A stretch of DNA of 64,000 nt, taken from Alphaproteobacteria bacterium. Its GTDB lineage: Bacteria > Pseudomonadota > Alphaproteobacteria > SP197. Position 1 is the stretch's first letter; each line of letters begins with the position of its first letter. Below, piece after piece: positions 3,342 to 59,200 of the stretch. Under the pieces are notes generated by a model that had not been told where the DNA came from, ran no database searches, and worked only from the letters and a program-made list of their open reading frames with translations. Position numbers and translations under genes: made by a program. The stretch lies in assembly GCA_964291415.2 (NCBI GenBank), contig OZ219920.1, forward strand, positions 480,001 through 544,000. Direction: 5' to 3'.

Positions 3342-4784
3342 TGTCTGCCCGCGTACTCCAGGAATCGGCGCTCCGCGTCAGCGACTGCGTGACGGAGCTG
3401 CTGCGCAAGCAGCCCTTCTTCGGGAGCCTCGTGCTGAGGCTCCCGCTTCGCCCCGATGCGACGCGCGAGACGCTTGGCGACCGACGGGCACGAGATCCGC
3501 TACTCGCCCCGCTGGGTGGCGGAGACCGATTCGCACCTCATCGAGACCGCGATGGCGCGCGTGGTGATGGCCTGCGCCCTGAAGCACCACACCCGCCGGG
3601 GCGACCGGGACCCCGAGCGCTGGCAGATGGCCTCGCAGCTCGTCACCCATGCGCTCGTTCGCGACGCGGGCTTCACGCTCCCGCCCGACGCGGAAGCCTG
3701 GGACGGGCTCACCGTCGAGCAAGCCTACGACCGCCTCCAGGCCGAGGACGGCGACCCCGGCGACGACGGCGACGCGCCCTCCGATACCGCCGGAGCCGGT
3801 GCCTCGCCCGCCGGCCAATCCTCGCCCGACGGCGATGACGAGGACTCCGACGACGACACCGATTCCGCCGCCGCCGACAGCGACGGCCCCGACGATGACG
3901 GCGACAGCGACGGCCGGGACGATGACGGCGACGGCGATTCTGACGGCGAGGCCGGAGGCGACCAGGACGGGGACGGCCAGGACGGCAACGGCGAGGGCGA
4001 CGATGCTACGCCCGATGCGCCGCCCAGCCACGATCCGTCCGGCACCGGCGAGGTCATGGACGCGGACGCCCGCGCGGGCGACGACGGCGAGCCCGCCGAG
4101 GCGCCGGTGGACGTCACCGCGGAGGAGCAGGCGTGGGACGAGGCCATGCACCAGGCGCTCAACATCGCCCGCGCCGAGGGCAAGGTGCCGGGCCGGGTCG
4201 AGGAGACCATCCAGGGCGCCCATGCCAGCACGCTCGACTGGCGCACGCTGCTGCGCCGCTACATGACCGACGCGGCGAGCCACGACTATAGCTGGAGCGT
4301 TCCCAACCGGCGCTTCATCGACGGCGGTCTCTACCTGCCCTCCATCCGTTCCGAGGGCATCGAGACCATCGCCTTCATCATCGACAGCTCCAGCTCCCTT
4401 GCGACCGCGACACTCGCCGAGTTCTGGGCGGAGCTGCGCGAGGTCGCGGCCGAGATCCGCCCCGAGAGCGTCATCGTCCTCCAGGTCGACACGGTCCTTC
4501 AGGACGCGGCGGAGTACGCCGCCGACGACCTTCCCGACGAGATCGCGGCCAAGGGCCGGGGCGGCACCGACTACCGCCCGGGCTTCGCATGGCTCGACGC
4601 GCAGGGCATCGAGCCGAGGGTGTGCCTCTACTTCACCGACATGGAGTGCTCCGACTACCCGGAGACCGAGCCCGCGTTCCCGGTGCTGTTCTGCGACTAC
4701 GGCGACGAGGAAAGCCCCTGGCGGCACCCCGCGCCCTGGGGCGAGCGCATCAGGATCGCCCCCGACCGGCGGGCCTCGCCGTGA
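3341..4784 (+). CDS. DUF2201-type protein: metallopeptidase-like N-domain, acidic linker, VWA-like domain (frameshift ~3475)
   Basis: PFFGSL...ATDG, RRGDRDPERW, Asp/Gly-rich linker, LDWRTLLRRY, YSWSVPNRR, MIDAS-like IDSSSS, GRGGTDY, YFTD. Confidence 0.85.
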
Positions 4785-5198: not shown

Positions 5199-7741
5199 AT
5201 GAACCACATCGCACCCATGCACGAATCGGCGATCCGGGACATCCCGCTCTGCCGGCTCGCGCTCGCGCCCGAGAACGTGCGCAAGACCCCGCCCGACGAG
5301 GCGGCCGAGACCCAGCTCCGGGCGTCCATCGCCGAGCACGACCTGCTGGAGAACCTCGTCGTGCGGCCCGACGAGCCGGACGCGGACGGCATCGAGCGCT
5401 TCGCCGTCGTCGCCGGCGGGCGCCGCCTCGCGGCGCTCAAGGCGCTGGCCGAGAACGGCACGCTGCACGCCGATCACCCGGTGCCCTGCAAGATCGCCGC
5501 CAACGGCAACGCCAGCGAGCTCTCGCTCGCGGAAAACGTGGTGCGCATCGCGATGCACCCCGCCGACCAGGTGGTCGCGTTTGCCGGACTGGCCGATTCC
5601 GGCGTCACCGTCCCGGCCATCGCCGCGCGCTTCGGCGTCTCCGAGCGCACCGTCGAGCAGCGGCTTCGCCTCGGCAACGCGGCGCCCGAGCTGCTGGACG
5701 CCTACCGCGCCGAGCAGTTCGACCTCGAGACCCTGATGGCGTTCGCCGTCACCACCGACCACGACCGCCAGCGCAGCGGTTTGGGAGCGGGTGTCGGGGC
5801 AGAACTACCGCCCCGCCGCCTGGCAGGTGAAGCGCATGCTGACCGAGGAGCGGGTGCCCGCCGGCGCGGCTACGGCCCGCTTCGTCGGCGTCGCGGACTA
5901 CGAGGCTGCCGGCGGCCGGGTGCTGCGCGACCTCTTCGCCGACGAGCACGAGAACGGCGTGTGGCTGGAGGACCCGAAGCTGCTCGACGAGCTCGCCATG
6001 AAGAAGCTCCAGGCGGCCGCCGACGAGCTCTCGACCCGCTGGAAGTGGGGGGAGGCCATGGTCGAGGTCGACTGGAGCGCCACCGCGCGCTACGGGCGCA
6101 TCCATCCCGAGCCCGGCGAGCCGACCGACGCCGAGAAGGCCGAGATCGAGCGGCTCACCGCCCGCCACGACGAGCTCGTCAACATGGACGAGGACGCGTG
6201 GACGGACGCGCTGGTCGAGGAGGCCGAAGCCATCGAGCCGCGCCTCGACGAGATCGAGGCCGAGGTCGAATCCCGCGCCCGGTTCAAGCGCGAGGATTTC
6301 GCGATCGCCGGGTGCATCGCCACCATCGGGCGCGACGGCTCGCTCCAGGTCATCCAGGGGCTGGTGAAGCCCGAAGACCTGCCGAAGGACACCGGCGCCG
6401 CCGCGAACGGCCACGACGCCGATGCCGGTGACGACACCACGGCCGACACCGGCCGGGTCAACGGTCCCGCCATCACCACGCCGCTGGCATCGCCCGTCGA
6501 CCCGCGCGCCAAGGCCCGCGCCGACGCGGGCGTCGGCATCGGGCTCGCGGACGATCTGCGGGCCATCCGCACCGCGCTCGTCAAGGCGTATCTCGCGGGC
6601 GACTTCGAGGCCGCGTTCGACCTCGTGGTGTTCCAGATGGTGCGCGCGGTGTTCGCCCGCGGCTACACCGCGTCGTGGCACGCGCTCGACATCCAGTTCA
6701 ACGAGACCGCCGACCGGCCGACGTCCCGGACGAACGACGACGACTTCGCGAGCGTGGAGCCCGGGCGAGGCGATGCTCGCAGACTGGTCGCACCTGCCCT
6801 TCGAGTGGATGGAGGGCGACGACGACGCGGCCTGCTTCGCCGCGCTCCGGGCGCTGCCGCGCGCGGACAAGGAGAAGCTCTTCGCGGCCGCGGTGGCGCG
6901 GACGGTGAAGGGCCAGCTCGCCTTCGAGCACGACGCCCGGCCCGAGCTCGAAGCCACCGTGGCCCGGCTCGACATCGACTTCGCGAAGCACGTGCGGCCG
7001 ACCGCCGACAGCTTCTGGTCGCGCATCAGGAAGAGCCGCATCCTCGACATCGCCCGCGAGACCCTGGGCGCGGCCTGGGCATCGACGCGGTCGAAGTACA
7101 AGAAGGCCGACCTCGCGAACTCGATGGAGGAGGCGTTCGCGGCCGGCACGCCGCCCGTGGGCATCGGCGCCACGATGCACGCCGCCGCGCTCGCGTGGGC
7201 CATTCCGGGGTTCGCGGCGTTCGATTCGGGCGGTGCGCCCGAGGAGGATGCCGCCGCGAACGAGGCCACCGGGGACGCTCAGGCGAACCCCGCGGACGCA
7301 TCCGGGCATGCCACGGCAGATACCGCGGCCGCGGAGAAGCCGCGCGCCACGTCGGTGGTCGAGAGCATCGAGTCCCCGGGCGTCGCGGAGCGCCGCGCCG
7401 CCGCCAGTGCGGAGGCCAACTCCCCGAGCGGCAACGGCGAATCCGTCCCCGCCCCGGATTCCCGCGAAGCTGCCGCCGAAGCCGAGACCGGCGCGAACGG
7501 CAACGGCCACGCCGATCCGGTGCAGGACGAGGCCGAGGCCGGCCCGGAGCCGGTGAACGGCGAGGGCTCGGAGGACGGACAGCCCGAACCCTCCGCCGCC
7601 GACGCCATCGACGCGATGAACCGGGTCCCGACCGCCGACGGCGGGCCCCGGGTCATCGTGCAGACGGTCGGCCCGGTGAACGGCGAGGCTCCGGCGGACG
7701 ACCCGCTGGACATCCCCGAGTTCCTGCGCCGCGTCCACTGA
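5199..7741 (+). CDS. long ParB/Spo0J-family protein of plasmid leading regions (frameshifts ~5780 and ~6755) with an FtsZ-like C-terminal peptide
   Basis: IPLCRLALAPENVRK, LLENLVVRP, VVAGGRRLAAL (CTP-binding GxxR), SLAENVVR, HTH IAARFGVSERTVEQRLRL; ends DDPLDIPEFLRRVH. Confidence 0.88.
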
Positions 7742-7758
7742 CCGTTCGCCACCAACCG

Positions 7759-7799
7759 AGTGCCCCGTCCGGCACGCCGCCGGGCGGGGCGCTTTCCTT
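7759..7799 (+). terminator. putative intrinsic terminator after the parB-like gene
   Basis: GCCCCGTCCGGC-loop-GCCGGGCGGGGC stem followed by a weak T-rich tail (TTTCCTT). Confidence 0.45.
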
Positions 7800-7824
7800 C
7801 CCGCATCCATCACGGAGAGCGTCC

Positions 7825-10508: not shown

Positions 10509-11154
10509 ATGCCCCGCACCGTCGAGACCGTCGTCTACGAGCTGGAAGAGCTGCCGGAGGCGGCGAAGGAGAGCGCCCGCGCCTGGTATCGCGAGACCTG
10601 CCTCGAACACGAGTGGTACGACGCCGTGTTCGAGGACTTCGAGACGATCTGCCGGATCCTCGGCGTGACGCTCCGGACCAGCCCCGTGAGGCTCATGGGC
10701 GGGGGGACGCGGGAAACCCCCACCTGTTCTTTCGCGGGTTCCACAGTCAGGGGGACGGCGCGTCCTTCGAGGGTGCGCTACAGCCTACGCCCCCGGCGCG
10801 GCCAGGGCCATCCGCGCCCACGCGCCGAAGGACGAGGAGCTGCACCGCATCGCGGACGAGCTGCAGGCGGTCCAGAAGCGCAACTTCTACCAGCTCACCG
10901 GCACCATCCGGACGCGCGGCAACTACTGCCACGAGCACAGCATGGCGATCGAGGTCGAGCGCGACAGCCCGACCTGGCAGCCGATGACGGACGGCGCCGA
11001 GGACACCGTGATCGAGGCGCTGCGCGACCTCGCCCGCTGGCTCTACCGCCAGCTCGAACGCGAGTACGACTACCTCACCTCGGACGACGCGGTCGACGAG
11101 TCCATCGCTCTCAACCAGTACACGTTCACCGCGCAAGGCCGCCGTTTCGGCTGA
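10509..11154 (+). CDS. conserved plasmid hypothetical protein (frameshifts ~10720 and ~10785)
   Basis: AAGGAG RBS; VYELEELPEAAKESARAWYR, GFHSQGDGASFEG, LARWLYRQLEREYDYLTSDDAVDESI...YTFTAQGRRFG. Confidence 0.72.
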
Positions 11155-11398
11155 CCCGCCCGGCCGTCCCCGGTATCGCGGCTTCGACAGGCCCGCCCCG
11201 CACACCCTCCCCATAGCACCGCGCCGCGCCCGCACCGCCGGGCGCCGGTACGCCGCCCCCGCCTGATCCCGCACGTCCCGGCCCGCGCCCTCCCGAGGCG
11301 AGGCAGCCGGCCGGGGGCAGGCCCGGCGACGCGGCGCGGGAGCCCTCGCTCTCGCCGCACGGCCGGCGGTTCCACGTCCTGCCACTTCGGAGAATGCC

Positions 11399-14300
11399 AT
11401 GCTCGACGCCCACCCGGCGCCGGACGCGTCCGCGCGCCCGCCGCTTCCCCCCGTATCCGTCCCGGCCACCGGCCCCAACGGCGCCATCGAGGACGCTCCC
11501 GCCGCGCTCCTCGGCGCCGCCCGCACTCTGCTCCCCGTGCTCGAAGCGGGCCGGCCCCTCGACGCCGCCACGCTCCGCGACGCCATGACCCGTGCCTTCG
11601 GCGCGAGCGACTCCGACGGCGCCTGGGTCTGGAAGGACGCCTACGAGGCGGCCGAGGCCGCGGTGGTGATGTTCGTCCGCCGCTACGGACGCGCCATGCG
11701 CCGGCGGGCCGGCGCCGGCGCGGACGGCCCCCGCAGGATGCTCGACATGCTCGCGGCCGTCGCCGCGCTGGAGCCCTCGCACACGAAGCGTTCCGAGGAG
11801 CAGGTCCGGCTCCAGCAGTTCTCCACCCCGCTGCCGCTCGCCTATGCCGCGCTCAAGGCCGCCGCCGTCCGGCCGGGCGACATCGTGCTGGAGCCCAGCG
11901 CCGGCACCGGGATGCTCGCCGTGATGGCGGAGTGCGCGCTCGGCAAGGACGCCGCCGGCCGCCTGTATCTGAACGAGATCGCGGCGGTCCGCGCCGGCCT
12001 GCTCGCGGGGCTGTTTCCCGGCATCGCCGTCACCCGCCACAACGCCGAGGCCCTCGCCGACTTCCTGCCGGGCCTGCGTCCGACCGTGGTGCTGATGAAC
12101 CCGCCGTTCTCGGCGACGCCGGGGATCGAGCGCATCCGCCACGACGCCGATCTGCGCCACCTCCGCTCGGCCTTCTCGATGCTGCCGCCGGGCGGACGGC
12201 TCGCCGCCATCACCTCGGCCCACTGCGTTCCCGGCGACGCCGCCTGGCGCGGCGCCTTCGCCGGCCACGCCGCGCGCACCGTGTTCACCATGGCCATCGA
12301 CGGGCGCGCCTACGCCCGGCGCGGCACCGGCTTCGACACCCGGCTCACCGTCATCGAGCGGAGCGCCGGGGCCGGCATCGACATCGACGGCCAGGCCCGC
12401 GCCGCGACGCCCGCCGCGCTGCTCGACGCGGTCATCGCGCAGGTGCCGCCGCGCGCCGCAATCGAGCCCGAGCCGATCCGGCCCGCGCCCGCCGTCGCCA
12501 GCCGGGACCTGTTCGGCAATGCGGTCACGCCGCCGAAGACCGGGAAGCCGGCCGCCCACGCCGCCCCGAAGACGCCTCGCGACTGGGGTCCCGTCAGCGA
12601 GCTCCCCGTCGAGACGGCGGCGCCGGAGACCGGCCCGGGCGCACCCGTCGCCGCGTCCACCGCCGGCCCCTACGAGCCCTGGCGCCCGAGCGTCGTGCGG
12701 GTGCCGGGCGCCATCGAGCACCCGACCCCGCTCGTGCAGTCCGGTGCGATGGCCGCCGTGTCCCATCCGGTGCCGGCCTTCCGCCCCATGCTGCCCGAGC
12801 GGGCGGTGACGGACGGGCTGCTGTCCGACGCCCAGCTCGAGAGCGTGGTCCTGGCGGGGGAGGCCCACTCGCGCCACCTCGCCGCCGACTACCGCATCGG
12901 CTCCGGCTGGGAGACCGTCCACCGCTGCCGCGAGGACGACGGCGAAGAGATCGACACCGCTTGTCTCACCGATGACGGCGAAACGCTGTCGGCCCCGGTC
13001 CGGTTCCGGCGCGGCTGGATGCTGGGCGACGGCACGGGCGCCGGCAAGGGCCGCCAGGTCGCCGCCATCGTGCTCGACAACTGGCTCCAGGGCCGCAGGC
13101 GCGCGCTCTGGCTCTCGCAGTCGGACAAGCTCGTCGAGGACGCGCGCCGCGACTGGACCGCGCTCGGGGGCGCGACGACGACGTCATCCCCCTCGGCAAG
13201 TTCCGCCAGGGGGCGGAGATCCCGCTCTCGGAGGGCATCCTGTTCGCCACCTACGCGACGCTGCGCTCGCCGGCCCGGCAGGGGAAGGCGTCCCGGCTCG
13301 ACCAGATCGTCGACTGGCTCGCGGGCTCGCTCGACGAGGACGACCGCCACGCCTTCGACGGGGCGGTGATCTTCGACGAAGCGCATGCGATGGCCAACGC
13401 GGCGGGGTCGAAGGGCAATCGCGGCGAGGTCGCGCCGTCCCAGCAGGGACGCGCCGGACTCAGGCTCCAGAACGCGCTCCCCGATGCGCGCATCGCCTAC
13501 GTCTCGGCGACCGGCGCCACCACCGTCCCCGGTCTCGCCTACGCCGGTCAGCCTGGGCCTGTGGGCCGCCGGCGAGACGCCCTTCGAGAAGCGCACCGAC
13601 TTCGTCTCCGCCATGGAGGCGGGCGGGGTCGCGGCGCTCGAAGTGGTCGCGAGGGACTTGAAGGCCCTCGGGCTCTACCAGGCCCGCGCGCTCTCCTACG
13701 ACGGGGTCGAGGTCGAGATCCTCGAACACCCGCTCTCCGACGCCCAGCGGCGCATCTACGACGCTTATGCCGGCGCGTTCAAGGTCATCCACCACAACAT
13801 CCAGGAGGCGCTGAAGGCGACCGGCATCACGCAGGGCGACGCCACCCTCAACAAGAACGCCAAGTCGGCCGCCATGAGCGCGTTCGAGGGCGCGAAGCAG
13901 CGCTTCTTCGGGCACCTGCTGACCAGCATGAAGTGCCCTTCGCTCATCCGCGCGATCGAGGCCGACCTCGATTCCGGCCGCTCGCCCGTCATCCAGCTCG
14001 TCTCCACCGGCGAGGCGCTGATGGAGCGGCGCATCGCCGAGATCCCGGCGTCCGAGTGGGACGACATCAACGTCGACCTGACGCCGCGCGAGACCGTCAT
14101 CGAGTTCCTGGCCCACGCCTTCCCGGTGCAGCTCCAGGAGCCGTTCACCGACGACGACGACAACGTCATGAGCCGGCCGGTGTTCGACGAGGACGGCAAC
14201 CCCGTCATCTGCCAGGAGGCCGCCGCCCGCCGCGACGCGCTCATCGAGAAGCTCGCGTCATTGCCGCCGGTGCCCTCCGCGCTCGACCAGATCGTGCAGC

Positions 14301-15897
14301 ACTTCGGGCACGACGCCGTCGCGGAAGTGACGGGACGGTCCCGCCGGGTGCTGAAGATCACCGACGCCCGCGGCGAGCGCCTCGCGCTGCGCACCCGGCC
14401 CGCCTCGGCCAACCTCGCCGAGACCGCGGCGTTCATGGACGGCGAGAAGCGCATCCTGGTGTTCTCGATGGCGGGCGGCACCGGCCGCAGCTATCACGCC
14501 GATCTCGCCTGCGGCAACACCGAGCGGCGCATCCACTACCTGCTGGAGCCCGGATGGCGGGCCGACCAGGCCATCCAGGGGCTCGGCCGCACACATCAGG
14601 ACGCACCAGGCGTCCGCGCCGCTCTTCCGCCCCGTCGCGACGGACGTGAAGGGCGAGCGGCGGTTCATCGCCACCATCGCGCGCAGGCTCGACAGCCTCG
14701 GGCGCGATCACGCGCGGCCAGCGCGATTCGCAGACCGCGATGGGCGGCGACCAGGCGCTGTTCCGCGAGAGCGACAACCTGGAGAGCCTGTACGCCAAGG
14801 CGGCGCTGCGGCAGTTCTACATGGCGCTCCACCGCGGCGCCATCGAGGGCTGGTCCCTCGCCGACTTCGAGGAGGCGACCGGCCTCAAGCTCGTCCACGA
14901 GGGAACCCTCAAGGAGGACCTGCCGCCGATGTCGCGGTTCCTCAACCGGCTCCTGGCACTCCCCATCGCCGAGCAGAACCAGCTCTTCGCGGCATTGGAG
15001 ACCCGCATCGAGTCGAACATCGAGCAGGCGATGGAGGCCGGCAGCTACGAGGTGGGCGTCGAGACGGTGCGCGCTGACTCGCTCTCCACCGCGGGCCGCG
15101 AGACGCTGTATGAGCATCCCCGCACCGGGGCCGCGACCGACCTCGTCGAGATCGTCCGCCGCGACCGGCTGGAGCCCACGACCGCCGAAACCGCGCTCGA
15201 CATCGGCGCCCGCGATCCGGGGCCGGACGGCAAGCCGTCGCTGGTCGTGAACGCGCGCTCGAAGCGGGCCGCCATCCTGCTGCCGGCGCCGTCGCGCCTG
15301 TTCGACGACGGCGGGGTCCAGGAGCGGACGCGCCTCGTCCGGCCCGCGACCCGCGAGACGATGGCGCGGACGGAGCTCGACGCGTCCCACTGGCGCCCGG
15401 CCGACGAGCCGACCTGGCGCGCGCTCTGGGAGCACGAGACGACTGAGCTGCCGACCCACCGGGAATCGCGCTTCTGGCTCGCGGCCGGATTGCTTCTGCC
15501 TATCTGGGACCGGCTGCCGTTCGAGAACATGCGGGTGCGCCGGCTCACCACCGACGCGGGCGAGGCCCTCATCGGCCGCGTGCTCGACGCCGAGCAGGTG
15601 AGAGCCGTGCGCACGAGCTTCGGCCTCGGCGGCGCGTTCGCCATGACCGGCGCCGAAGCGTTCGAGGCGGTCATGGGACGCGGCACCGCGCTCGCGCTCG
15701 CCAACGGCTGGCGGCTCGCGCGCCGGCGCATCATGGGCGCCGACCGCGTCGAGATCGAGGGACCGGTCGACGGCGACACCGATGCGCTGAAGCGCATGGG
15801 CTGCACCGTCGAAATCGTGTCGTGGCGGGCGCGCGCCTTCGCCCCCGGCGCGCACGTCCTCGACCGCATCCTAGAACGCTGGCCGCTCGCCTCATGA
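11399..15897 (+). CDS. N6-adenine methyltransferase fused to a strawberry-notch-family helicase (about 4 frameshifts)
   Basis: QQFSTP, LEPSAGTG, NPPF; LGDGTGAGKGRQ, IFDEAH, YVSATGA, AGGTGRSYHA, QGLGRT. Confidence 0.9.
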
Positions 15898-16045
15898 ACG
15901 GCGCCCGCGCTATACGTATTGCCGGCCCGCCGCCCTCCGGCGGCGCCGGCCCGTCCGCTACCATGCCCCGCACCGCCATGCGCGGGGCACGCGCCGCCGG
16001 CCCGCCGGCCGCCAACACCGCCACCCGCGCAAGGAGACCGCTCCA

Positions 16046-28563: not shown

Positions 28564-31539
28564 CTACAACCCGAGTCCGCGATCGACGCCCTTCGGCGTG
28601 CGTGCCTGCTCCATTTCGGGCACCGGGGTTCGCTCTTCCTCCCGGGGCGCCGGAGCACCGCCTTCAAGGCCAGCATTTCGGCCCGCCCCCAATCCGGCCT
28701 CGCGCCCCTTCGCACGCTCCGGTTCGACAGCTTCGAGCGCCGCGATGCGCTCGCCGGTGGCCGCTTCGAGCTGCTCCTTGAGCGCCGCCTTGTCGTCGGT
28801 GACGAGCTCGGCCCGGTCCCGCGCGCGGGAGATCTCGACGTAGAACGACTTCTGCGTGGTGAGGTGGGGGTGGTTGGCCTCCATCGCGGCGATCACGGTG
28901 TCCACCGTGCGGCCCTGGAACGCGTGCACGGTGGAGGCCCAGGCGCGGTCGACATGGCGGAGCTGCGGGTCCCCGGGGGCGAGGTCGAGCGTGCGCCCGT
29001 CCTCGAGGCGGAACGTCACCCTGCCGTCCCTGACCGCCGCGACCTCGGCGGTGCCGCTGTTGACGAGCCCAAGCCCGGCGTCGTTCCGGGTCCAGCGGAT
29101 CCGGTCGCCGGTGCGGAGCTCCATCTCCTCGCTGCGGTACACCTCGACGCCGCCGGCGCGGGCCGCGATCCGGTTGGGCTCCCAAGCAACGGAGCGCCCG
29201 TCCGTTCCCTCCAGATTCACCATTCGCGTCCGGCGGTCCACCCCGGCGACGCGCAGCTCGTCGCCCTTGTCGACCCCGAGACGCTTGTAGGGGCGGTGGA
29301 ACGCAACCGTGTCGCCGGGCCGGTAGTTGGCGGCGAGGGTCTTCTCGGCGTTGGTGTAGCCCCGCGAGACGAGGCGTTCGACTGTCGTGGCGGGGCCGTG
29401 CACCGCGCCGTCGCGCACCAGGCGTTCGCGGACGATGGCGTTGATGTTCTCGCGCAAGCCGTGGCTCGGGGCCATCAGCCCGGCGTTGGCCCGCTCCTCG
29501 GGCGAGAGCGCGAGCCAGCGCGCGGCGGCGGCGCCCGCGAGGTTGTCGGGCTTCACTTCGGCCACATTCTCCCCCAGCTTGTCGAATGCGCGTGCGACGT
29601 CGCCCGCGAGGCTCGCCTCGACGGCTTCCTTCAGCGCCGGGTCGCGCTGGCGCATGATCTCGTCCATTACGGCGGTCTTCATGCCGGCGGCCTGGAGTTG
29701 GGCGAAGGGCTTGCCGGCGTCCACGGCGTCGAGCTGCTTCGCGTCGCCCACCAGCACCACGCGGGGGATCCGGAGCGCGTCCGCGATGCGGAGCAGGTTC
29801 CGGGCCTGAACTGTGGAGGCGAGCGAGCCCTCGTCCACGACCAGCGCGGTCTTCGCGAACTGAGCCCGCATGTCCTTCTCGCCCTTCCTGGTCATGCGCC
29901 CTTCGGCGACCCCGGCGTAGCGGGCGAGGAAACGCTGGAGGGTTTCCGAGCCGATGCCGGCCTCGCCTTCGAGGGTGCGCGCGGCCGAGGCCGAGGGCGC
30001 GAGTCCCCGGACCTCATAGCCCTTCTTCTCCAGCAGCCCGCGGGCGCGCCGCAGCATGGTGGTCTTGCCCGAGCCGGCGTAGCCCTGGACGCCGACCGTG
30101 CGATCGTCCGACGACAGGATCAGCTTCACCGCCTCCTTCTGGCCGGCGGTCAGCGGGCCGCCCCAGAGCGCCTTGTCGACGGCGCGGGCGCGCATCGGCA
30201 CGGCACCCCGGCGCTCGCCCGCCCGCATCAGCGCGATGGTCTCGCGCTCGTCGGCGACGGCGCGGTCGGTGGTGAGCAGCCCCTCGGCGCCCGGCAGACG
30301 GGCGGCGTGCAACGTCCCGGCTTGCTCGCGGGCCGCCACCTCGCGTTCGATGTCCCCGATCCGCGCCGCGCCGGGGCCGTGGGCGAGCGCGGCGGCGAGC
30401 AGGTCGGTGCGGGCGAACACCGCCTCGCGCTCGGAAAGATGGGCGACGGCCCATTCCACGGCCTGCGCCGCCGGCGACCCGGCTGCTTCGTCCCGCGCTG
30501 TTGCGGAGTCCGCTTCCACGGCCGCGCCTGCGCCGGGCATGGCTCCGTTGCCCCCATCCGGCCCCGCTTCCCGTCCCCGGCCCGGCTCCGTCCCCGCGTC
30601 CCGGCCGGCCTCCCGCGATCTCGCTTCGCCGGCAAGCGCAGGGGCATCGAACCCGAGCGCGGCGGCCTGCCGCTCCCAGCTCTCCCTGAGCTCGTCACGG
30701 TCGACGTCGCGCTTGGCGGCGCGGGTCATCAGCGCCGCGCGCTGGGCGAGGCGCTGGTCGTCCGCGGTATCGCCGCCGCCGCGCTCGGCGACCGCCGCCT
30801 CGATCTCGGCGCGCCGGGTCGAGAAGGCTTCCACGACCTCGCGCGAGACGCCCGCGATCTCGAAGCGTCCGTCGGCATGGGTCTTCTCGATCCCGTATCC
30901 GAGCCGTGCGAGGCCGGCGGCGAGCTCGCTGCGGTAGAGCGCGCCCAGCAGCATCTTCGACCGGTACAGCTTCTCGTTGGCCATCGAGCGCCACTTGCCG
31001 TCCTCCCCCTGCACCATGTTGGCGATCACCGCGTGGGTGTGGAGCGCGGGATCGAGGTTGCGCGAGGTGTCGTGGCGGAAGGTGGCGATCACCGTCTTCT
31101 GGCCGCCGGTGCGGGCCATGCGCCCGGTCTCGGGGTCCTTCATCCGGGTCTCGGCGACGTTCCGCTCCAACCAGGAGAGCGTGCGCGCGACGGCCCGGTC
31201 GTGGGCGTCGACCACGCGGGCGTCGCCGCCTACGAGCGCCGCGAGCGACACGGACTTCGGGGCCGAGAGGGTGAGGTCGCGGCCGGGGCGGTGCGTGATT
31301 TCGCCGTCCTTGCCGCGGCGACCCAGGCGGGTGTCCGAGCCGTCCGGCACCTTGCCTTCGAGCACCGCGCGGAAGGCGCCGGGATCGACCGGCCCGGTCA
31401 GCCCGAGCTCGTCCGCCCCCCTGCCGGCCCAGGCGCTCGCCTCCCGGTGCTCCGGATCGTCCTTCGCGTAGTAGCCGTCGCGCTCGTAGTAGCTCGCACC
31501 CTGGGCCGGAGCGGCGACGGCCCCGATCGAGGCGACCAT
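28564..31539 (-). CDS. traI: MOB_F relaxase-helicase (TrwC/TraI)
   Basis: SYYERDGYY, DLTLSAPKSVS, HDTSRNLDPALHTH, QGYAGSGKT, VVDEGS, STVHAFQGRT. Confidence 0.96.
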   Translation of the reverse strand: MVASIGAVAAPAQGASYYERDGYYAKDDPEHREASAWAGRGADELGLTGPVDPGAFRAVLEGKVPDGSDTRLGRRGKDGEITHRPGRDLTLSAPKSVSLAALVGGDARVVDAHDRAVARTLSWLERNVAETRMKDPETGRMARTGGQKTVIATFRHDTSRNLDPALHTHAVIANMVQGEDGKWRSMANEKLYRSKMLLGALYRSELAAGLARLGYGIEKTHADGRFEIAGVSREVVEAFSTRRAEIEAAVAERGGGDTADDQRLAQRAALMTRAAKRDVDRDELRESWERQAAALGFDAPALAGEARSREAGRDAGTEPGRGREAGPDGGNGAMPGAGAAVEADSATARDEAAGSPAAQAVEWAVAHLSEREAVFARTDLLAAALAHGPGAARIGDIEREVAAREQAGTLHAARLPGAEGLLTTDRAVADERETIALMRAGERRGAVPMRARAVDKALWGGPLTAGQKEAVKLILSSDDRTVGVQGYAGSGKTTMLRRARGLLEKKGYEVRGLAPSASAARTLEGEAGIGSETLQRFLARYAGVAEGRMTRKGEKDMRAQFAKTALVVDEGSLASTVQARNLLRIADALRIPRVVLVGDAKQLDAVDAGKPFAQLQAAGMKTAVMDEIMRQRDPALKEAVEASLAGDVARAFDKLGENVAEVKPDNLAGAAAARWLALSPEERANAGLMAPSHGLRENINAIVRERLVRDGAVHGPATTVERLVSRGYTNAEKTLAANYRPGDTVAFHRPYKRLGVDKGDELRVAGVDRRTRMVNLEGTDGRSVAWEPNRIAARAGGVEVYRSEEMELRTGDRIRWTRNDAGLGLVNSGTAEVAAVRDGRVTFRLEDGRTLDLAPGDPQLRHVDRAWASTVHAFQGRTVDTVIAAMEANHPHLTTQKSFYVEISRARDRAELVTDDKAALKEQLEAATGERIAALEAVEPERAKGREAGLGAGRNAGLEGGAPAPREEERTPVPEMEQARTPKGVDRGLGL

Positions 31540-31540
31540 C

Positions 31541-33605
31541 TCAGATCGCTATCCCCGGCCCCGTGCCGGGGAGCCCGCCTTCTTTCGCCTCGCCGTCCCG
31601 ATCTTGCGGTCCGCCGTCCGCGGCCTCTCCGGCGTCCGCCGGGGCATCCTCCGCCTCGCCGGGCAGCGGCGCGGGCTCCGGCCCGTCCCCGGGCGGCGCG
31701 GAGTCCGGCGCGCCGTCCTTCGCCGGCGACGGGTCTACGGGCTCTGTATCCGCCTCCTCCGGCAGGGCGGGGAACGCGATATCCGCGTCGCCGCCGGGAT
31801 CGGCGACCGGCGCCGATGCGGCGACTTCGGCGTCGTCCGCACGACCGGGTGGCTCGGCCCGGTCCTCGCGCGGCACGAACCGCTCCGCCGCCTTCGGGCG
31901 GGAGACGTATTTCAGGCGGATCGAGGCGACCGGGAAGGGGCCGGGGAACTTGAGATAGCCCTCCAGGTTGGCGAGCCGCATGATCTCGGAGGGGAGCGCC
32001 AGCGCGCGCAGCTCGCGGCGCGGGGTCAGGCTCACCCCGTCGCGAATCGTGTTGGCGCCGTAGGAGAACCCCTCGGCGACCTCCTCGATCTCGCTCCGTC
32101 CGAGACTGTCGGCCGACCACTGAGCGGTGTCGCGGTCCGGCGCCGCCAGCACCACGCGCGTGCCGCAGAGCCCGGAGATCGTCTCGGCCCCGTTCCGCCC
32201 GTAGAGGTCGCGCAAGGCCGACGCCACCTGGACGCCGAGCACGAAGCAGCCGCCGAACTGGCGCGACTCGGCGAGGCCGGGCTGGAGCGAGGGCACCTGG
32301 TGCAGGGTGGGGAGCTCGTCGAGGATCACCCAGATGCGCCGGTCCGGTTCCTGCGCGAGCGAGAGCATGGCGTTCACCGCGATCTCCAGCCAGGTCGAGA
32401 TCAGACCGCGCAGGCTGGCGTGCTGGTCGCCGCGCGAGGTGAGGAACAGGAACCCGTCCCGGTCCTCGTCCGATATCCACTCGCGGATCGAGAACGGCTT
32501 GCCGGTATCGGGCAGGAACTCCAGCGCCGACAGGTTGGCGGTCAGCATGGCGCGCACGCTGAGCGCGGTCTTCGGGTTGTCGGGATCGACGATGGACTGC
32601 GCGACCGTGCCTTCCATCGCCTCGGCGAGCGCCGTCAGGTCCGTCTTCAGGAGATGGTCGACCAGGACCTTGTTGTCCTTCACCCCCTTCTGCCGGAGCA
32701 CCCCGGCGCCGTTGGAGAAGAGCTGGCGCGCGGCCGTGACCCAGAAGGGATCGACCGTGTCCTTCTGCTGGGGGATCAGCGCGGCCGCCATCATGTCGAA
32801 GTCGCGGGGATTGCGGGCTTCGAGGAAGGGCGACCAGCGCGGCGCGCGCGCATCCAGCGGGTTCATCAGCACGTCGCGGTCGCGATCGAAGAAGGACCGC
32901 GTGTAGCTCCCCATCTTGTCGTAGAGGACGCAGCGCTCGCCGCGCGCGCGGATCTGCGAGACGAGGTCGGAGATCAGCACCGTCTTGCCCGACCCGGTGG
33001 TGCCCGAGACGATGGTGTGCTGCGTCTCGGTGCGCTCCGGATACGGGATGCCGGCGATGGACCAGGGGCGGAGCCGCCTGCCGCCCGGAAGGATGCCGAG
33101 AAGCCGCTCATGGGGCGATTGCAGCCGGCGGCGGAGCTCTCCGGCCGCTGACCATCTCCGCGCCCCGGATGCGCTTCTGGCGGCCGAGCTGCGCGCCGCG
33201 ATACCAGAACACGACGAGGAAGAGCCCGATCAGCCCGGCGCCGGCCGCCGGCCCGAGCCCGGCGCTCGCGAACATCTCGTCCCTGATCCGCTCGCGTGCT
33301 TCGCGGGCCGGGACGGAGGCGGCGATGTCGCGGATGCGCAGCACCCGCCGCGTGCCGTCCTCGAAGCGGATCTCCTGGCCCGAGTCCGGGTCGTAGCCGA
33401 GGACGAGCTTGACCTCGGCGAGGCTGACCATCCCGGCGGCGTACCACTCGTCGCCCGTCGTGCGCTGCCACAGCGTCCAGGCCGGGACCGCCACGGTGGT
33501 GAAGGCGGCGAAGAACACGGCCGCGCGGAAGAGCTGGCCCCACATGCGCAGCCCGTGGAAGACGGTCTGGCCGCCCCGGAGCGTCGAGCCGCCGATGCCG
33601 CGCAT
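31541..33605 (-). CDS. traD: type IV coupling protein TraD (frameshift ~33140)
   Basis: RGGQTVFHGLRM N-terminus with TM segments, Walker A GTTGSGKT, NPLDAR, WVILDELP, ESRQFGG, acidic tail. Confidence 0.93.
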
Positions 33606-53218: not shown

Positions 53219-56200
53219 TCAGAACCGGGCTTCCAGCTTCAGCCGGACCCCGTGCTCGGGCTCCGTCCCGGCGTCGTTGGCGGGCTCCTTGCGCGTCGCC
53301 TCGATGCCGAGCTCGAACGAGGACGGCCCGCCCGGCACCAGCCCGAGCCGCCAGCCGAGCCGGTAGTCGCGCCCGGCGTCGGAGACGCCGATCCCGAGCT
53401 CCGGCGTCGACGTGAACCGGTCGCCGAACGCCGGGAGGCCGTAGCCGAGCTTCAGCTCCAGCCGGCGCGCCTCGAAGCCGTTGTCGTTGGCCGCGAGGTC
53501 GGCGAGCGTCTGGCGCCCGAGCAGCGCGTCGGCCCCGCCCGCGGCCTGCGCGCCCAGCGTCTGCGTCAGCGTGAGCGACGGCCCGCGGTCCGACGCCGGG
53601 TCCGGGTCCCAGGCGAGCGAGCCGGAGACGCCCCGGTCCTTGAGCCCCGCCGCCTCGTGGGCAACGAGCCCCCGTCCCGAGACCTCGGCCGAGAGCCCGA
53701 GCGCCGGGGCGTGCCAGCGCAGCCCGCCGCCGATATCGACGCCCCAGCCGGTCTCGGCGTCGCCGCCGTCATGGCGCAGACCGAGCTCGAAGGTGGGCTC
53801 CAGCGTGCCCCCGCCGTCGCCCGTCCCGGAACCCGATCCGGGAAGCGCGAAGGCGTAGCCGCCGTCGAGCCCGAGACGGAGCCGCGTCACGTCGGCCTCC
53901 GCCGCCGCCAGGCCCCGCGCCTTCTCCGAGGCGGTCCGCACCCAGAACGCGTCCGCCTCCAGGTCGAGCCGGAACCCGCTCCCGCCCGCCGGCTCGACGA
54001 GGTTGCCCCTGGCGCCGAGCGCCGCCATGCCGAGCGACATGTCGGTCTCCAGCGCCGGATCGTCCTCGCCCGTCTCCGGGTTCTTCGGGGTGAGCGTCAG
54101 CGTGCCCTCGCCGAGCCCCGCCGCGGCCCAGGCCCTGAGACGCGCGCTCACGTCAACCGCCGCATAGGGGTAGACCCCGGTGAGCGTGTTCTCGACTTTT
54201 CCTGAGCCGCCGTCGCCCGAATAGCTGCCCTCGCCGATGCTGTGCTTGACCATCGCGCCGAGCAGCCAGCGCCCGGTGCGCCAGTCGGCCCCGAGCGTCG
54301 CCGAGGTCACCTCGCCGTCGACGGTGAGCGGGCCGTCGCGCCCGCTGAACGACGACGACGCGCCCCGGCCCCAGAGCGCCACCGACGCCCCGCCGTCCTC
54401 CGGCGCCGCCGTCAGCGAGAACGCCGTCGAGGCCAGCACCTCGCGCCCCGTCATGCTCCGGTCCTTCGCGCGCGCCTCGTCGTCCCGCTCGTCGGTCCCC
54501 GCGAGCCACCGCCCGAGCCGCTCCGCGTCGCGCCGCGCCGCCGCGTCACCGACGAACCCCGCCGCGGCGGTTTCGTTGTCATTCGCCGCGCTCGCGCCCC
54601 GCCCGCCGCGGACCCCGAGGGCGCCCACGACGGCAGCGCCTGGCCGCCCAGCGTCGCCTGGCCGCCGGCCGCGCGCGGCGCGTCGAGCCGCGCGCCGACC
54701 GCGTCCACCACCTGCTCGGCCACGGTGCGCCCGAACCGCGCGAGCCACGCCTTCGGCATCTTGTCGGTGTTCCTGATCGTGCCCGTCGCCTCGAGATCGC
54801 CTGCCCGCGCGCCGACCACGTTCGAAAGCCGCAGCAGGAAGGTCTCGTGGCCCTCGTCGTGGCCGTCGTCGAGGATGGGCACCCGGACCGTCTTCGACGT
54901 CTCGCCCGCAACGAAGACGAGCGTGCCCGAGGTCGCCGTGTAGTCCTCGCCCGCCGTCGCCGTGCCGTCCGCCGTCGCGTAGCTCACCCGCACCCGGTGC
55001 CCGGACCCGTGAAGGCGCGGCTCAGGCTCACCTCGAACGCGACCGCCTCGTCCACGCCCTCGCGCGCCTCCGCGTCCGCCACCGAGAGCACCGGGCGCCA
55101 GTCGACCTTGTGCTTCGGGTCGTGGCCCAGCCCCGCGTGCCCGAGCGCCGCGTCCGCGCCCGTCGCCGCCGAGCGGATCGTCCCGCCGCCGAGCGCCAGC
55201 GTGTTCACCAGCACCGCGATGCCCTGCGGCGCGTAGTTGGGCTCCACCACCGTCCAGGCGAAGGTCAGCGCCAGCGTCGCCGTGCCGGTCGCGCCCTCGT
55301 ACACCGCCCGCTTCTCGCCCCAGCGCGGGTCCATCTTGATCGTGAGCCCGGGCGAGCCCGTCACCTCGACCGCCTCGCTGAAGGTGAGCCGCACCCGGAT
55401 CGTGTCGCCCAGGAGGTAGGTGTCGTCGCTGCCCGCATCCGAGACCACCGCCACCCCGGTCACCGAGGGCCGCCCCTCGGCCGGCGGCGCGAGCCGCCAG
55501 TCCACCCTGTGGGCCGCGTCGTGGCCGAGCCCCGCATGCGCAAGGCTCGCGTCCGACTGCGTCCCCGCCGACTTGATCGCGCCGCCGTTCGCCTCCAGCG
55601 TGTTGGCGAGCACCGCGATCCCGGTCGGGGCGGTGTTCGGCTCCACCACCGTGTAGGCGAAGGTCAGCGCCGCCGTGCCGCCGCCGCTCGCATAGCCCGC
55701 CCAGAACTCGCCCCAGCGCGGGTCCATCTTGATCTTCACCCGCGGCGAGCCCGTGACGTCGACCGCCCGGTCGAACGTCACCCGCACCCGGATCGTGTCG
55801 CCCAGGCCGTAGGTCCGGTCGCCGCCCGCGTCCGAGACCACCGCCACCCGGTGACCTTCGCCGGCGCCGCCCGCACCCCGGCGGACCCCGTCCCGCCGTG
55901 CGCGAGCGCCGCGGCCAGCCCGCCGCCCGCGCTCACGATCGACCCGCCGCCGAGGCTCAGGCTGTCCGCGACCACCCCGACCGCGCCGTGCCCGCCGTCG
56001 GCCCCTGCCAGGGTGTAGCCGAAGGTCAGCGCGGGCCCGCCGGAGCCCGCGCATACGCCGCGCGGCGCTCCACGCCCCCGAACGAGAGCGCCACCGAGGG
56101 CGCGCCCTCGACCGCGACCGGCTCGGCAAAGGTGAGCGTCACCGCCACCGTGTCGCCCGCGCCCCAGCCCCCGGCCGGCGCGTCCGGGACCGCCAGCCCC

Positions 56201-59200
56201 GTCACCCCCGGCGCCTCGCCGAAGGCGAGCGATGCCGCCGTGCCGCCCGCCGCGGCCGCGATCGCGCCGCCATTGAGCTTCAATCCCGACGCCGCCGCCC
56301 GCACCGAAGCGCCCAGGCTCCCGTCCGCCGCGACCGCCCGGTACGCGAACACGAGCCGCGCCGTCCCCGAGCCCGACACGTAGGCCGCCCGCCGGATTCC
56401 GTCATTCGCGATGAGCGCCAGCGTCGGCACGCCGCCTTCGGTGTCCACATCCACCGGCGCGTCGAACGTCACCGCCGCCTCGACCGTCTCGCCCTCGGTG
56501 TACGCGCCGTCCGCGCCCGCGTCCGACGTCACCTCGACCCCGGTCACCGCGACCGGGACCGGCGCGAGCCGCCAGTCCACCTTGTGCGCCGGGTCGTGCG
56601 GCAGCCCGGCATGCCCGAGCGCCACGGCCGCGCCGGTCGCCGCCGACGTGATCGTGCCGCCGTTCGTCTCCAGCGTGTCCGCCAGCACCGCGATGCCGGT
56701 CGGGGCGGTGTTCGGCTCCGCCACCCGGTAGGCGAAGGTCAGCGCGTTCGTGCCGGAGCCGCTCTCGTAGCCCGCCCGGAACGCGCCCCAGCGCGGGTCC
56801 ATCTTGATCGTCAGGCGCGGCGTCCCGCCGCCGGTGTCCACCTCGACCGCCTCGGCGAAGGTCACCTCCACCCGGATGGTCTCGCCGAGCGCGTAGGTGT
56901 CGTCGTCGCCCGCGTCCGAGACCACCGCCACGCCGGTCACCGAAGACCCCGTCCCGGTGACGTTGACCAGCTCGATCCGGACGTACAGCCCGGTGCCGGC
57001 GTCGCCGTCCGGCGCCAGCAGGTTCCCGGCGAGGTCACGGAACGACCCGTCGGCGCCGTCGGCGCGCCGGAAGTAGGTCAGCTTGTTGCGCTCCGTCAGG
57101 CCCGCCCGCGCCGGCGGACAGTACTTGCCCAGCCCGACCGTCACCGTCTCGCCGTCGACCGACACCGCGCCCGTGGCGGAGCAGCCGAGCGATGCCGTCT
57201 CCGAGGTCTGTATGCCCATCAGGAACCGGCCCCCGGTCGATGCCGGGTCCAGCGCCTCGCTGAAGGTGAGAGTCACCGTCCCGCCGTCGATCTCGCCCCG
57301 CAGCAGCCGGGGCGGCTCCCCATCCACCCTGTGCGCCGCGTCGGGCGCAAGACCCGGGTGGCCGAGCGCCGCGTCCGCCTGCCCGGCCGCGGTCCGGATC
57401 GTGCCGCCATCGAGCTCCAGCGTGTCCGCGAGCACCGCGACGCCGCCGCCGGACACATCGCCGGCGGCCACCGTGTAGGCGAAGGTCAGCGCGTTCGTGC
57501 CCGAGCCGCCCGCATACGCCGCCCAGCGCTCGCCGCCGTCGGCCGGGTCGAGGTCGAGCTTCAGGCGCGGCGTCCCGCCCGCCGTGCCCACGTCGACCGC
57601 CTCGGCGAAGGTGAGCCGCACCCGGATCTCGTCGCCGGCCGCGTAGGTTGCGTCCGCGCCCGGGTCGGAGACCACCGCCACCGCCTCGCCCGACGGCGCC
57701 GCGGGCGTTGCGTTCGCTGCCGCCTCGCCCGAGAAGGCCGCCGCCGCGTTGCCCGCGAGGTCGCGGACCGGGCCGTCCTCCGGCGGCGCGTAGGCCACCG
57801 TCACCGTCTCGCCGGCAAGGACCGCCCCGGCGAGCGTCACCGTCAGCGCCGCGCCGTCGACGCCCGCCGTGCCCGTGCCGGCGATCTCGCGCGCCGCGCC
57901 GTCGCCGAGCCGCGCCGTCGCCGTGAAGGCGCTTCCCGCCGGCGCCGGGTCCGCCTCCAGCGCCTCGCCGAAGGTCACCGTCAGCGCCGTGCCCGACACC
58001 GCCGCCGACGCGAACGCGGGCGCCGCCGTGTCCACCCGGTGGCCCGTGTCCGCCGCCACCGCCGGATGGGCGAGCGCCGCGTCGGCATCCGTCGCCGACG
58101 ACCTGATCGTGCCGCCGTCGAGCTCCAGCGTGTCCGCCACCACCGCGACGCCGTCCGCCGACATGTCGCCGGCGACCACCGTGTAGGCGAACGTGAGCAC
58201 CGTCCCGCCGCTGCCCGAGGCGTACGCCGCCCACCGCTCGCCCGCGCCGTCCCCGCCGCCGAGGTCGAGCTTGAGCCGCGGCGTCCCGCCTTCCGTGTCG
58301 ACGTCCACCGTCTCAGCGAAGGTGAGCGACACCCGGATCTCGTCGCCGGCCGCGTAGGTCTCGTCCGCGCCCGGGGCGGAGGCCACCGTCACCGCCTCGA
58401 CAGCCGGCGCCGCGGCCGGCGTCCCGACGGTCACCGGCAGGTCCACGACGTTCCCGAGCTGCTTGCCGTCGACGCTCCACAGCCCGACCTCGCCGAGCGG
58501 CCGCCGGTAGCTCACCGTCGCCGTCTCGCCCGGCGCGAACTCGCGGCTCAGCGTCAGCCGGAGCGCGCGCGGGTCGTCCGCCGGGAACGCCGTCCCCGTC
58601 ACCGTCACCGGCCCGCCCGACGCCGCGACCGTGAACCACTCCGGGCGCGCCTCCGAATGCGCCGCGAACGGCCGTTTCGCCCTCAGGATGACGCTGCCCG
58701 GCTCCGCCGAATCAAGTCCATCCGGATCGCAGTGATCCCACCGCTCGTTCTCCACCTCCACCGGGCCGAAGCTCTCCGCCTTCGTGCCCCAGAGGTTGCG
58801 CAGCGCGTTGCGCTCGGGCTCGGCATAGCTCACCATCACGTCGTCGCCGGAGTCCTCATGGCCGTCGCAGGGCTGCAGCGGCCTCCCCAGGCGCAACGCC
58901 ACCTCGGCGCCCTGCACCGTGACGGCGTTGACGCCGTGGTACACGTTCACGGAGAGCACGAACGCCTCGTTCCACGGTACCGTCGTCGGGTCCAGCAGCT
59001 CGTCGAAGGTGAACGTCAGCACCCTCCCGTTCGCCTCCGGCGGGTCGTGCTCGATCTCGTCTTCCAGATTGGTGTCCACGAGCGTCGGCCGACCCAGGTG
59101 GCCCGTCACACCCAGGTTTTCCATCAGTTGACGCGGAAAGCTGAAGTCCGCAGCTTCGTTGCCGGCCGGGTCCCGCAGCGGGGTCGCGCCCGCGTTCGCC

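Follow-up and report, generated by a model that had tools for sequence, protein, structure and literature searches.

Why does a DNA-binding protein of a conjugative element end in what looks like the C-terminal peptide of the cell division protein FtsZ? This question is raised by a gene in a 64,000-nucleotide stretch of an alphaproteobacterial genome (GenBank assembly GCA_964291415.2, contig OZ219920.1, positions 480,001 to 544,000), referred to here as the window. The gene sits in an integrated F-type conjugative element, and its product, a protein of four domains, belongs to the HerB/YfjB/ParB2 family, i.e., the ParB-like CTP clamps of the leading regions of conjugative plasmids. The last 14 residues, DDPLDIPEFLRRVH, had been pointed out in a first-pass annotation made from the sequence alone, and the peptide and its TGA stop codon read exactly as claimed there (Table 1). 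The base protein is of a known kind (HerB/YfjB), and an FtsZ-like tail on it appears to be undescribed in the literature searched. The likeness is real and non-random. As to what the tail is for, an even chance is given here to a HerB-type clamp with an acidic disordered linker of about 160 residues and an FtsZ-mimic tail that docks on a host reader of the FtsZ tail.

FtsZ of the host ends in ...DDDLSIPSFLRRRE (a longer stretch of the same end is ...NDDDLSIPSFLRRRE), and the FtsZ tails that are readable in 29 of the 30 loci of relatives have in common [DE]D.L.IP.FLRR, followed by two or three residues. Compared with these 29 tails, DDPLDIPEFLRRVH contains the FtsZ-peptide core [DE]-[IV]-P-x-F-[LM]-[RK] with acidic residues ahead of it. 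It also stands at the extreme carboxyl end of a long linker with predicted disorder, as the FtsZ-peptide class requires. A log-odds matrix was built from 20 distinct 13-residue FtsZ tails of 28 relatives, the host being excluded, and was run over the 21,596 stop-to-stop frames of at least 100 codons (4,859,110 residues) in the 4.44-Mb genome. Thirty-seven windows exceeded 8 bits; host FtsZ ranked first (37.1 bits) and the tail of the ParB-like protein second (28.1 bits), and in both the scored 13-residue window ends one residue before the stop. The third rank (26.7 bits) is taken by an internal stretch of an unrelated 279-residue frame, and the remainder reach at most 16.4 bits. When a relaxed regular expression was applied to the six-frame genome, nine matches were obtained, of which only FtsZ and the ParB-like gene lie within three residues of the stop of a long frame. 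At the level of sequence, the tail is shown to be nearly identical to alphaproteobacterial FtsZ tails, including the distance from the carboxyl end.

The third-ranking stretch, VVDVLQIPAFLCRQTDLLV at G000:C4:1184169, lies outside the window in a protein that we take for a KDO-8-phosphate synthase type. As a chance look-alike, it may serve as a negative control for motif scans.

Two other readings of the tail were considered and rejected. Capture of the linker from ftsZ finds no trace in the alignments: once the last 13 residues are left out, comparison with 29 FtsZ C-terminal regions stays at shuffle level (in three of the 29 comparisons the score was reached by at most two of 100 shuffles, and host FtsZ gives a z-score of 0.1). 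Because the FtsZ likeness ends at the last 13 or so residues, the tail is, as judged from these alignments, a short linear motif and not a captured piece of ftsZ. An SSB-type acidic tail, which consists of an acidic linker with Ile-Pro-Phe as the very last residues, does not fit either, since in DDPLDIPEFLRRVH one residue separates P from F and F precedes L-R-R-V-H.

A test proposed in the first-pass annotation was whether homologues keep LDIPxFLR at the C-terminus while the linker diverges, and for L[DE]IPxFLR this was borne out in two samples. For the first, the C-terminal third of the protein served as query, and the best 120 of 1,743 matching database proteins were taken (longer proteins only, with 8,000 candidates scored). 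All but two of them end in [IVL]PxF[LM] plus four residues, the spacing of four residues after F-L being present in 118/118 motif-bearing close homologues, and the two exceptions have divergent, frameshift-like ends. Column conservation is 0.45–0.75 in the linker versus 0.94–0.98 in the last 16 columns. The second sample consisted of 80 loci from species-representative genomes, chosen by two peptide patterns in the helical C-terminal domain (D4) and hence independently of the tail; by record title, the hosts are mostly metagenome-assembled genomes (MAGs) of Alphaproteobacteria, with some Gammaproteobacteria and a few contigs binned to other phyla. Here the motif lies within 16 residues of the end in 79 loci. 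In these 79, P, F, and L are invariant, I, V, or L always stands ahead of P, R comes next in 78, and two to five residues follow F-L in 76. Mean pairwise identity is 0.72 over the 11-residue motif versus 0.21 over the preceding 40 residues. Judged by both samples, the last 11–13 residues are under strong purifying selection while the linker drifts.

A third, more distant sample was composed of 150 representatives of 50%-identity clusters, found with a full-length relative and reaching down to about 35% identity. Sixty-nine without a recognisable D4 end (fragments and frameshifted calls) were set aside. Among the 81 used, 47 have longer acidic tails (at least 25 residues), and 34 of these 47 carry a relaxed hPx[FW]h motif within 20 residues of the end. 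Across part of the family, then, an acidic linker with a hydrophobic P-x-F-L end is an old module that recurs, and its most FtsZ-like version belongs to the clade of the window gene. Many distant members (P0124-P0273, L002:5890-7848, L003:7929-10106), including the Escherichia coli IncI1 protein, end in ..AA or ..AAE.

The tail and its linker make up the 172 residues downstream of PGFAAF (7205-7222), the last motif of the folded domains, with about 158 residues of acidic low-complexity sequence ahead of the tail. The earlier description of some 150 residues of acidic, Ala/Pro/Gly-rich linker agrees with the composition counts and with the structure prediction. With the last 336 residues and an alignment of 32 rows as input, AlphaFold2 models the helical domain with confidence and gives most of the linker a predicted local distance difference test (pLDDT) value below 50, so that the linker is predicted to be disordered. 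Weak helices are placed at SVVESIE... and at the conserved AIDAMN island, and a four-residue helix runs across EFLR in the tail, which is not packed onto D4, although confidence there is low. The AIDAMN island is also kept in part of the homologues of about 50% identity, and no known motif was recognised in it. The N-G-H-D stretch right before the tail is retained in many clades.

The body of the protein is assigned to the four-domain HerB family because its profile alignment spans residues 35-619 of the 652-residue IncI1 protein, whose gene is located between ssb and psiB on an E. coli plasmid (hhalign with alignment A2: 99.9% probability, E 3.4e-33, 563 columns). The D3 and D4 domains are homologous to those of HerB-type proteins by the same comparison. 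BLASTP aligns residues 15-346 with the IncI1 protein at 36% identity, covering the helix-turn-helix (HTH) region, and AGGRRLAAL of the gene product aligns with AAGGRRLAAL of its counterpart, so that the GxxRR box is present. Structures of Spo0J and Noc are matched by the first 200 residues (E 2.5e-9 for Spo0J to 1.7e-4), the PDB matches of the N-terminal domains being canonical ParB and Noc only. Pfam ParB_N stays below its cut-off (E 0.0059), and at residues 131-157 two HTH models, HTH_23 (E 1e-4) and HTH_28 (E 8.9e-4), fall just short of theirs. The family is large: there are 10,327 matching cluster representatives with E values of at most 0.001, and at least 5,000 plasmid-collection records match, none of which covers 80% of the query among the matches listed.

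Several other classes were tried for this protein and rejected. Canonical partition ParB of ParABS systems (parB_part, 25.6 bits vs. a cut-off of 58.45), plasmid partition ParB (PRK13832, 52.1 vs. 640), PRTRC ParB (PRTRC_parB, 59.2 vs. 278.6), and Noc (NCBIfam model, 31.4 bits vs. 315) all fell short. The protein is not an FtsZ, being ParB-like throughout with no tubulin-like GTPase domain, and the sole FtsZ match of the genome lies on contig C2. The product is a DNA clamp, presumably CTP-dependent, that combines an HTH with a helical domain for dimerisation. HerB of the F plasmid was reported to be a CTP-binding, HTH-bearing, V-shaped dimeric clamp that is nucleoid-associated and expressed directly after transfer; in fresh transconjugants, HerB (YfjB) forms foci on the nucleoid and reprograms host transcription (PMC13370423, a July 2026 preprint). 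In F-like plasmids, the gene was described as part of an ssb-parB2-psiB-psiA cluster, and ParB2 of pED208 as itself a substrate of the F-type type IV secretion system (T4SS), through which it is translocated (PMC8406263).

Tails of this kind can also be compared with FtsZ inside one host. A 5-Mb genome of another family of the same class (G024) contains 10 matches to the ParB-like gene at eight or nine places (L068, L073, L075, L077-L083), several of them truncated or split, which points to a chromosome holding many related elements. Of its copies, which come from two sub-clades, one ends in PLEIPEFLRRVH and four end in LLEIPAFLRRG; FtsZ of this genome ends in DLLEIPAFLRRQAN and has ten consecutive residues in common with the LLEIPAFLRRG tails. 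In a Defluviicoccus MAG, the element copy ends in LDIPAFLRRT and FtsZ has LDIPAFLRRQAN, with LDIPAFLRR as the common stretch. The two sub-clades converge on FtsZ-like tails. Unusual FtsZ ends were seen in two element-bearing gammaproteobacterial MAGs, namely ...NPVPTHLRKQVD at L168 (G031) and ...FDIPAYIRRRTHDGPRV at L167 (G033).

Which host proteins could read such a tail? The first-pass annotation named FtsA, ZipA, MinC, SlmA, ZapD, and ClpX. The host has FtsA, whose gene adjoins ftsZ, as well as ClpX; searches of its genome, which is rated 100% complete with 9% contamination, gave no match for ZipA_C, MinC (two models), or ZapD, and therefore only FtsA and ClpX are left from that list. Alphaproteobacteria-specific FtsZ anchors beyond the models used may exist. 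Among the mechanisms considered, engagement of FtsA or of some other reader of the FtsZ tail has the best support, and we infer it with about as much confidence as doubt. Briefly, the tail would occupy the pocket with which a host protein otherwise grips the FtsZ tail; in this host, the protein would most likely be FtsA, with ClpX also available. Many tails displayed on DNA-loaded clamps would pull FtsA and membrane to the DNA, or, alternatively, would compete with FtsZ for its membrane anchor; by either route, division would be delayed or repositioned during establishment or transfer of the element. The fuller form of this proposal, a 'reverse nucleoid occlusion' in which clamps on incoming or excising element DNA, or on the nucleoid, capture FtsA and titrate the FtsZ membrane anchor, so that division is delayed or repositioned at establishment, is put forward tentatively and falls short of being probable.

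A number of observations weigh against docking on an FtsZ-tail reader. In five host genomes, the element tail does not track host-specific FtsZ variants: one FtsZ ends in NPVPTHLRKQVD while the element tail is DVPEFLRRIAS, and in gammaproteobacterial hosts RR is kept in the element tails where FtsZ has RK. A sample of five is too small, and FtsZ too conserved, for co-variation with host FtsZ to decide anything. Between P and F, 66 of the 79 tails have E, and none of the 29 FtsZ tails does; in structures of FtsZ-tail complexes, this position faces solvent, and E there may not affect docking. In the distant sample, 34 of the 81 proteins stop less than 25 residues past D4, with the motif in none, and only 17 of the 34 tails with the relaxed motif fit the FtsZ-like [LIV]PxF[LM][RKQ], the others continuing with acidic or neutral residues. 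Because distant homologues show the looser hPAFh motif, an ancestral motif of this type may serve another partner. A possible rival partner is also at hand, as a gene for a GHKL-type ATPase is located downstream in 78 of the 80 related loci (L084-L163; the two others, of 2.1 and 5.4 kb, are short or truncated by the end of the contig). An FtsZ-like tail is absent from the HerB-type proteins of E. coli, and the accessible text of the HerB preprint, which deals with transcription reprogramming, mentions FtsZ zero times (PMC13370423).

The state of the gene in the window is a further objection. In the assembly it is interrupted by two single-base insertions, and it is either a pseudogene or affected by assembly errors; unless the latter holds, the tail may not be made in this host. 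With the intact relative P0004 (846 aa), tblastn gives three pieces in frames 3/1/2 (identity 87%, 97%, and 88%), and the window-encoded C-terminal piece (P0001) is 91% identical to P0004, its closest intact relative. The open reading frame (ORF) listed at 6422-7741, which closes with the tail, is thus only the third piece of the gene. One base is absent at 5775/5778 and 6750/6754 in all four public runs compared, which are contigs of relatives and have no bearing on the reality of the two extra bases; no public run contained at least half of the sampled words of window positions 5600-7800, the best share being 0.39. Since intact relatives share the same ending, the C-terminus at 7741 is the true end of the family's protein, and the earlier worry that it might move to another frame is settled for the family, though not for the window copy.

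Frame breakage is uneven in this region. The neighbouring strawberry-notch-like helicase gene (11500-15910, forward strand) is read in five pieces (frames 2/1/2/3/1) against its homologue on a Phaeobacter plasmid, and the ORF at 10509-11216 likewise looks frame-broken. The genes for the GHKL protein, the relaxase, and the coupling protein each consist of a single open frame. The pattern suggests local decay or local assembly trouble and not a uniform error rate.

The strongest competitor to docking on an FtsZ-tail reader is a partner outside division, which we consider unlikely, if to be taken seriously. The tail could dock on the GHKL ATPase, on the coupling protein or relaxosome, where it would help to carry the protein itself over to the recipient, or on the protein's own D4, with the acidic linker as a DNA mimic and the tail as its hydrophobic anchor; the FtsZ likeness would be convergence on a common peptide of an acidic run, a hydrophobic P-x-F-L turn, and a basic end. 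This would account for the ParB-clamp and the GHKL-clamp being a conserved pair, for the lack of E at the x position among FtsZ tails, for tails that do not follow host FtsZ variants, and for distant homologues that retain just hPAFh, often with acidic residues next. It was also reported that ParB2 of pED208 is translocated by the F-type T4SS (PMC8406263) and that D4 of HerB bears a conserved basic patch (PMC13370423). However, motif and GHKL are separable, with one example each: on plasmid pNL1, a ParB-GHKL pair with an acidic tail has no motif, and a ParB of a Phaeobacter plasmid ends in LPAFLSEDAA with no GHKL in 8 kb annotated on either side. The match to FtsZ also exceeds the hydrophobic core, taking in two acidic residues ahead, RR behind, and the distance from the carboxyl end, and the AlphaFold2 model, at low confidence, leaves the tail unpacked from D4.

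A turnover signal that hands the protein to ClpXP and restricts it to a short pulse after transfer seems improbable. ClpXP also recognises the C-terminus of FtsZ, and ClpX is present in the host. The ..AA and ..AAE ends of many distant homologues resemble ClpXP-type C-terminal tags, which would suit a short-lived early protein, and for HerB of F, activity was reported to be confined to the very first phase after transfer (PMC13370423). A degron, however, needs no 11–13 conserved residues that copy the whole FtsZ peptide, and the clade with FtsZ-like tails ends in VH or VQ, not AA. A functionless chance likeness in a drifting low-complexity tail is scarcely credible: the unrelated 26.7-bit stretch shows that such peptides can arise with no link to FtsZ, but the motif is kept in 79/80 loci and 118/120 homologues at a constant position at the carboxyl end, with the preceding 40 residues 21% identical, and two non-FtsZ windows above 20 bits per 4.86 million correspond to about 0.01 expected among 21,596 frame ends.

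The features of the gene and of the surrounding element are listed in Table 1.

Table 1. Features of the ParB-like gene and its element in the window (coordinates are window positions)
Feature	Position	Strand	Details
Upstream gene, DUF2201_N and VWA-like DUF2201	3456..4784	+	Present in 36/80 related loci within a 3-kb flank
HerB/YfjB/ParB2-family gene	5199..7741	+	846 codons; here read in three frames
ParB N-terminal domain (CTP-binding type, AGGRRLAAL box) and HTH	5199..5780	+	Structure, Pfam, and BLASTP matches
First frame break, one extra base vs. relatives	5775..5782	+	Near 5779; tblastn
Second frame break, one extra base vs. relatives	6750..6757	+	Near 6754; tblastn
Helical C-terminal domain (D4 equivalent), end W..PGF	6761..7222	+	AlphaFold2 pLDDT 70-93; hhalign
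Acidic low-complexity linker, 127 residues	7223..7603	+	28 D/E, 5 K/R, 82 A/G/P/S/T/N
Second conserved island in linker, AIDAMNxVPTADGGPRVIVQ	7604..7663	+	Kept in close homologues; short helix predicted at start
FtsZ C-terminal-peptide look-alike DDPLDIPEFLRRVH and stop	7697..7741	+	Peptide 7697-7738, TGA 7739-7741
GHKL-type ATPase gene, 577 residues	7825..9558	+	Pfam HATPase_c E 6.4e-6; directly downstream
TrwC-type relaxase-helicase and type IV coupling protein	28564..33229	-	Pfam TrwC E 9.7e-87, TrwB_AAD_bind E 1.2e-141
F-type T4SS genes (TraH, TraG P-loop, TrbI)	beyond relaxase/coupling genes, to ~50 kb	-	Pfam

About 4.5 kb to the left of the window is a tyrosine integrase gene (G000:C4:474213-475487), after which G+C content drops for 4 kb (G000:C4:476001-480000; 0.49-0.54 vs. 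0.65); the two together probably mark where the element ends on the left. A search for tRNA genes as the integration site, which covered the window and 60 kb of flanking sequence, gave none. The ParB-like gene is present as a single copy in the host genome and is patchy in the genus (3/18 other genomes). Its neighbours encode the DUF2201/VWA protein, the GHKL ATPase, DUF6573, the strawberry-notch helicase, and RadC. The PADLOC defence library gave no match for the ParB-like, GHKL, and DUF2201 proteins or for an upstream 696-residue frame, and no ssb or psiB was found beside the ParB-like gene, though not every ORF was scanned.

The first-pass annotation had called the product a leading-region ParB. 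The family relationship holds, by way of the IncI1 ssb-psiB protein; the position is unsupported, as the gene is on the strand opposite to the tra operon. In F and IncI plasmids, leading genes are read from the transferred strand, which would be the reverse of the strand arrangement in the window. The term 'leading region' for this gene therefore rests on family resemblance of the sequence and not on position. Were the origin of transfer (oriT) to lie upstream of the tra operon, which is F-like, early entry would be expected for the integrase end, followed by the ParB-like block. To the right of the transfer genes (56026-64000, reverse strand), frames of 1,894 and more than 414 residues contain SWM_repeat and Big_5 Ig-like repeats and are either element cargo or chromosomal.

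How does this protein compare with known systems? HerB of F and the IncI1 ssb-psiB protein resemble it in the ParB-like domain with the GGRR box, the HTH, D3, and the helical D4, in the same order, and in being encoded on conjugative elements beside anti-defence-type genes. On the other hand, the E. coli protein stops about 30 residues past D4, whereas the window protein adds about 172 including the FtsZ-like tail, and the window gene lies in an integrated element, is followed by GHKL, and has neither ssb nor psiB among the neighbours identified. The tail resembles the FtsZ peptide in the core [DE][DE].L[DE]IP.FLRR, in its position 1–3 residues from the carboxyl end, and in the long disordered linker. 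It differs in sitting on a DNA clamp instead of a tubulin-like GTPase, in a dissimilar linker, and in having E between P and F in place of the A, S, P, or T of FtsZ.

DNA-bound proteins that are coupled to the division machinery are known. Noc, a ParB-family CTP clamp, ties DNA to the membrane and blocks division; its membrane link is an N-terminal helix, and the window protein is below the Noc model cut-off. SlmA is DNA-bound and grips the FtsZ tail (PMC4117426), while the window protein would display such a tail itself, the reverse arrangement. ParA-Shi-ParB of ICEclc offers a precedent for division arrest imposed by an integrative conjugative element with involvement of a ParB-type gene, as it was reported to stop division of cells engaged in transfer; however, it belongs to another element family, and in the accessible text no FtsZ-like tail is described and 'FtsZ' occurs zero times (PMC6812849).

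The first-pass annotation knew of no account of an FtsZ-like tail on a conjugative ParB-family protein, and none was met in the literature searched, which included the HerB preprint, whose supplementary homologue tables or tree could mention C-terminal extensions. The published function of HerB in the accessible text of that preprint is host transcription reprogramming, without a division role (PMC13370423). In addition, the papers listed for the strings IPAFLR, IPEFLR, and PAFLRR concern, by title or abstract, FtsZ or degrons.

Few leading-region genes of conjugative elements are as widespread as those for HerB-type ParB proteins, and description of their mode of action has begun only in 2026. 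A conserved 14-residue tail that copies the FtsZ hub and is readily removed by deletion provides a testable hypothesis on how a large clade makes contact with host physiology. If true, this would be the first case in which a protein of a mobile element imitates the FtsZ tail instead of binding to FtsZ, and peptide mimicry would join the known kinds of interference with division by mobile elements, which bind FtsZ, FtsA, or MinC. For the newly described HerB family, a direct connection with the alphaproteobacterial divisome would follow as well. As a DNA-anchored display of the FtsZ tail, the protein is a potential natural tool to probe the readers of that tail in Alphaproteobacteria, which lack ZipA, ZapD, and, in many cases, MinC.

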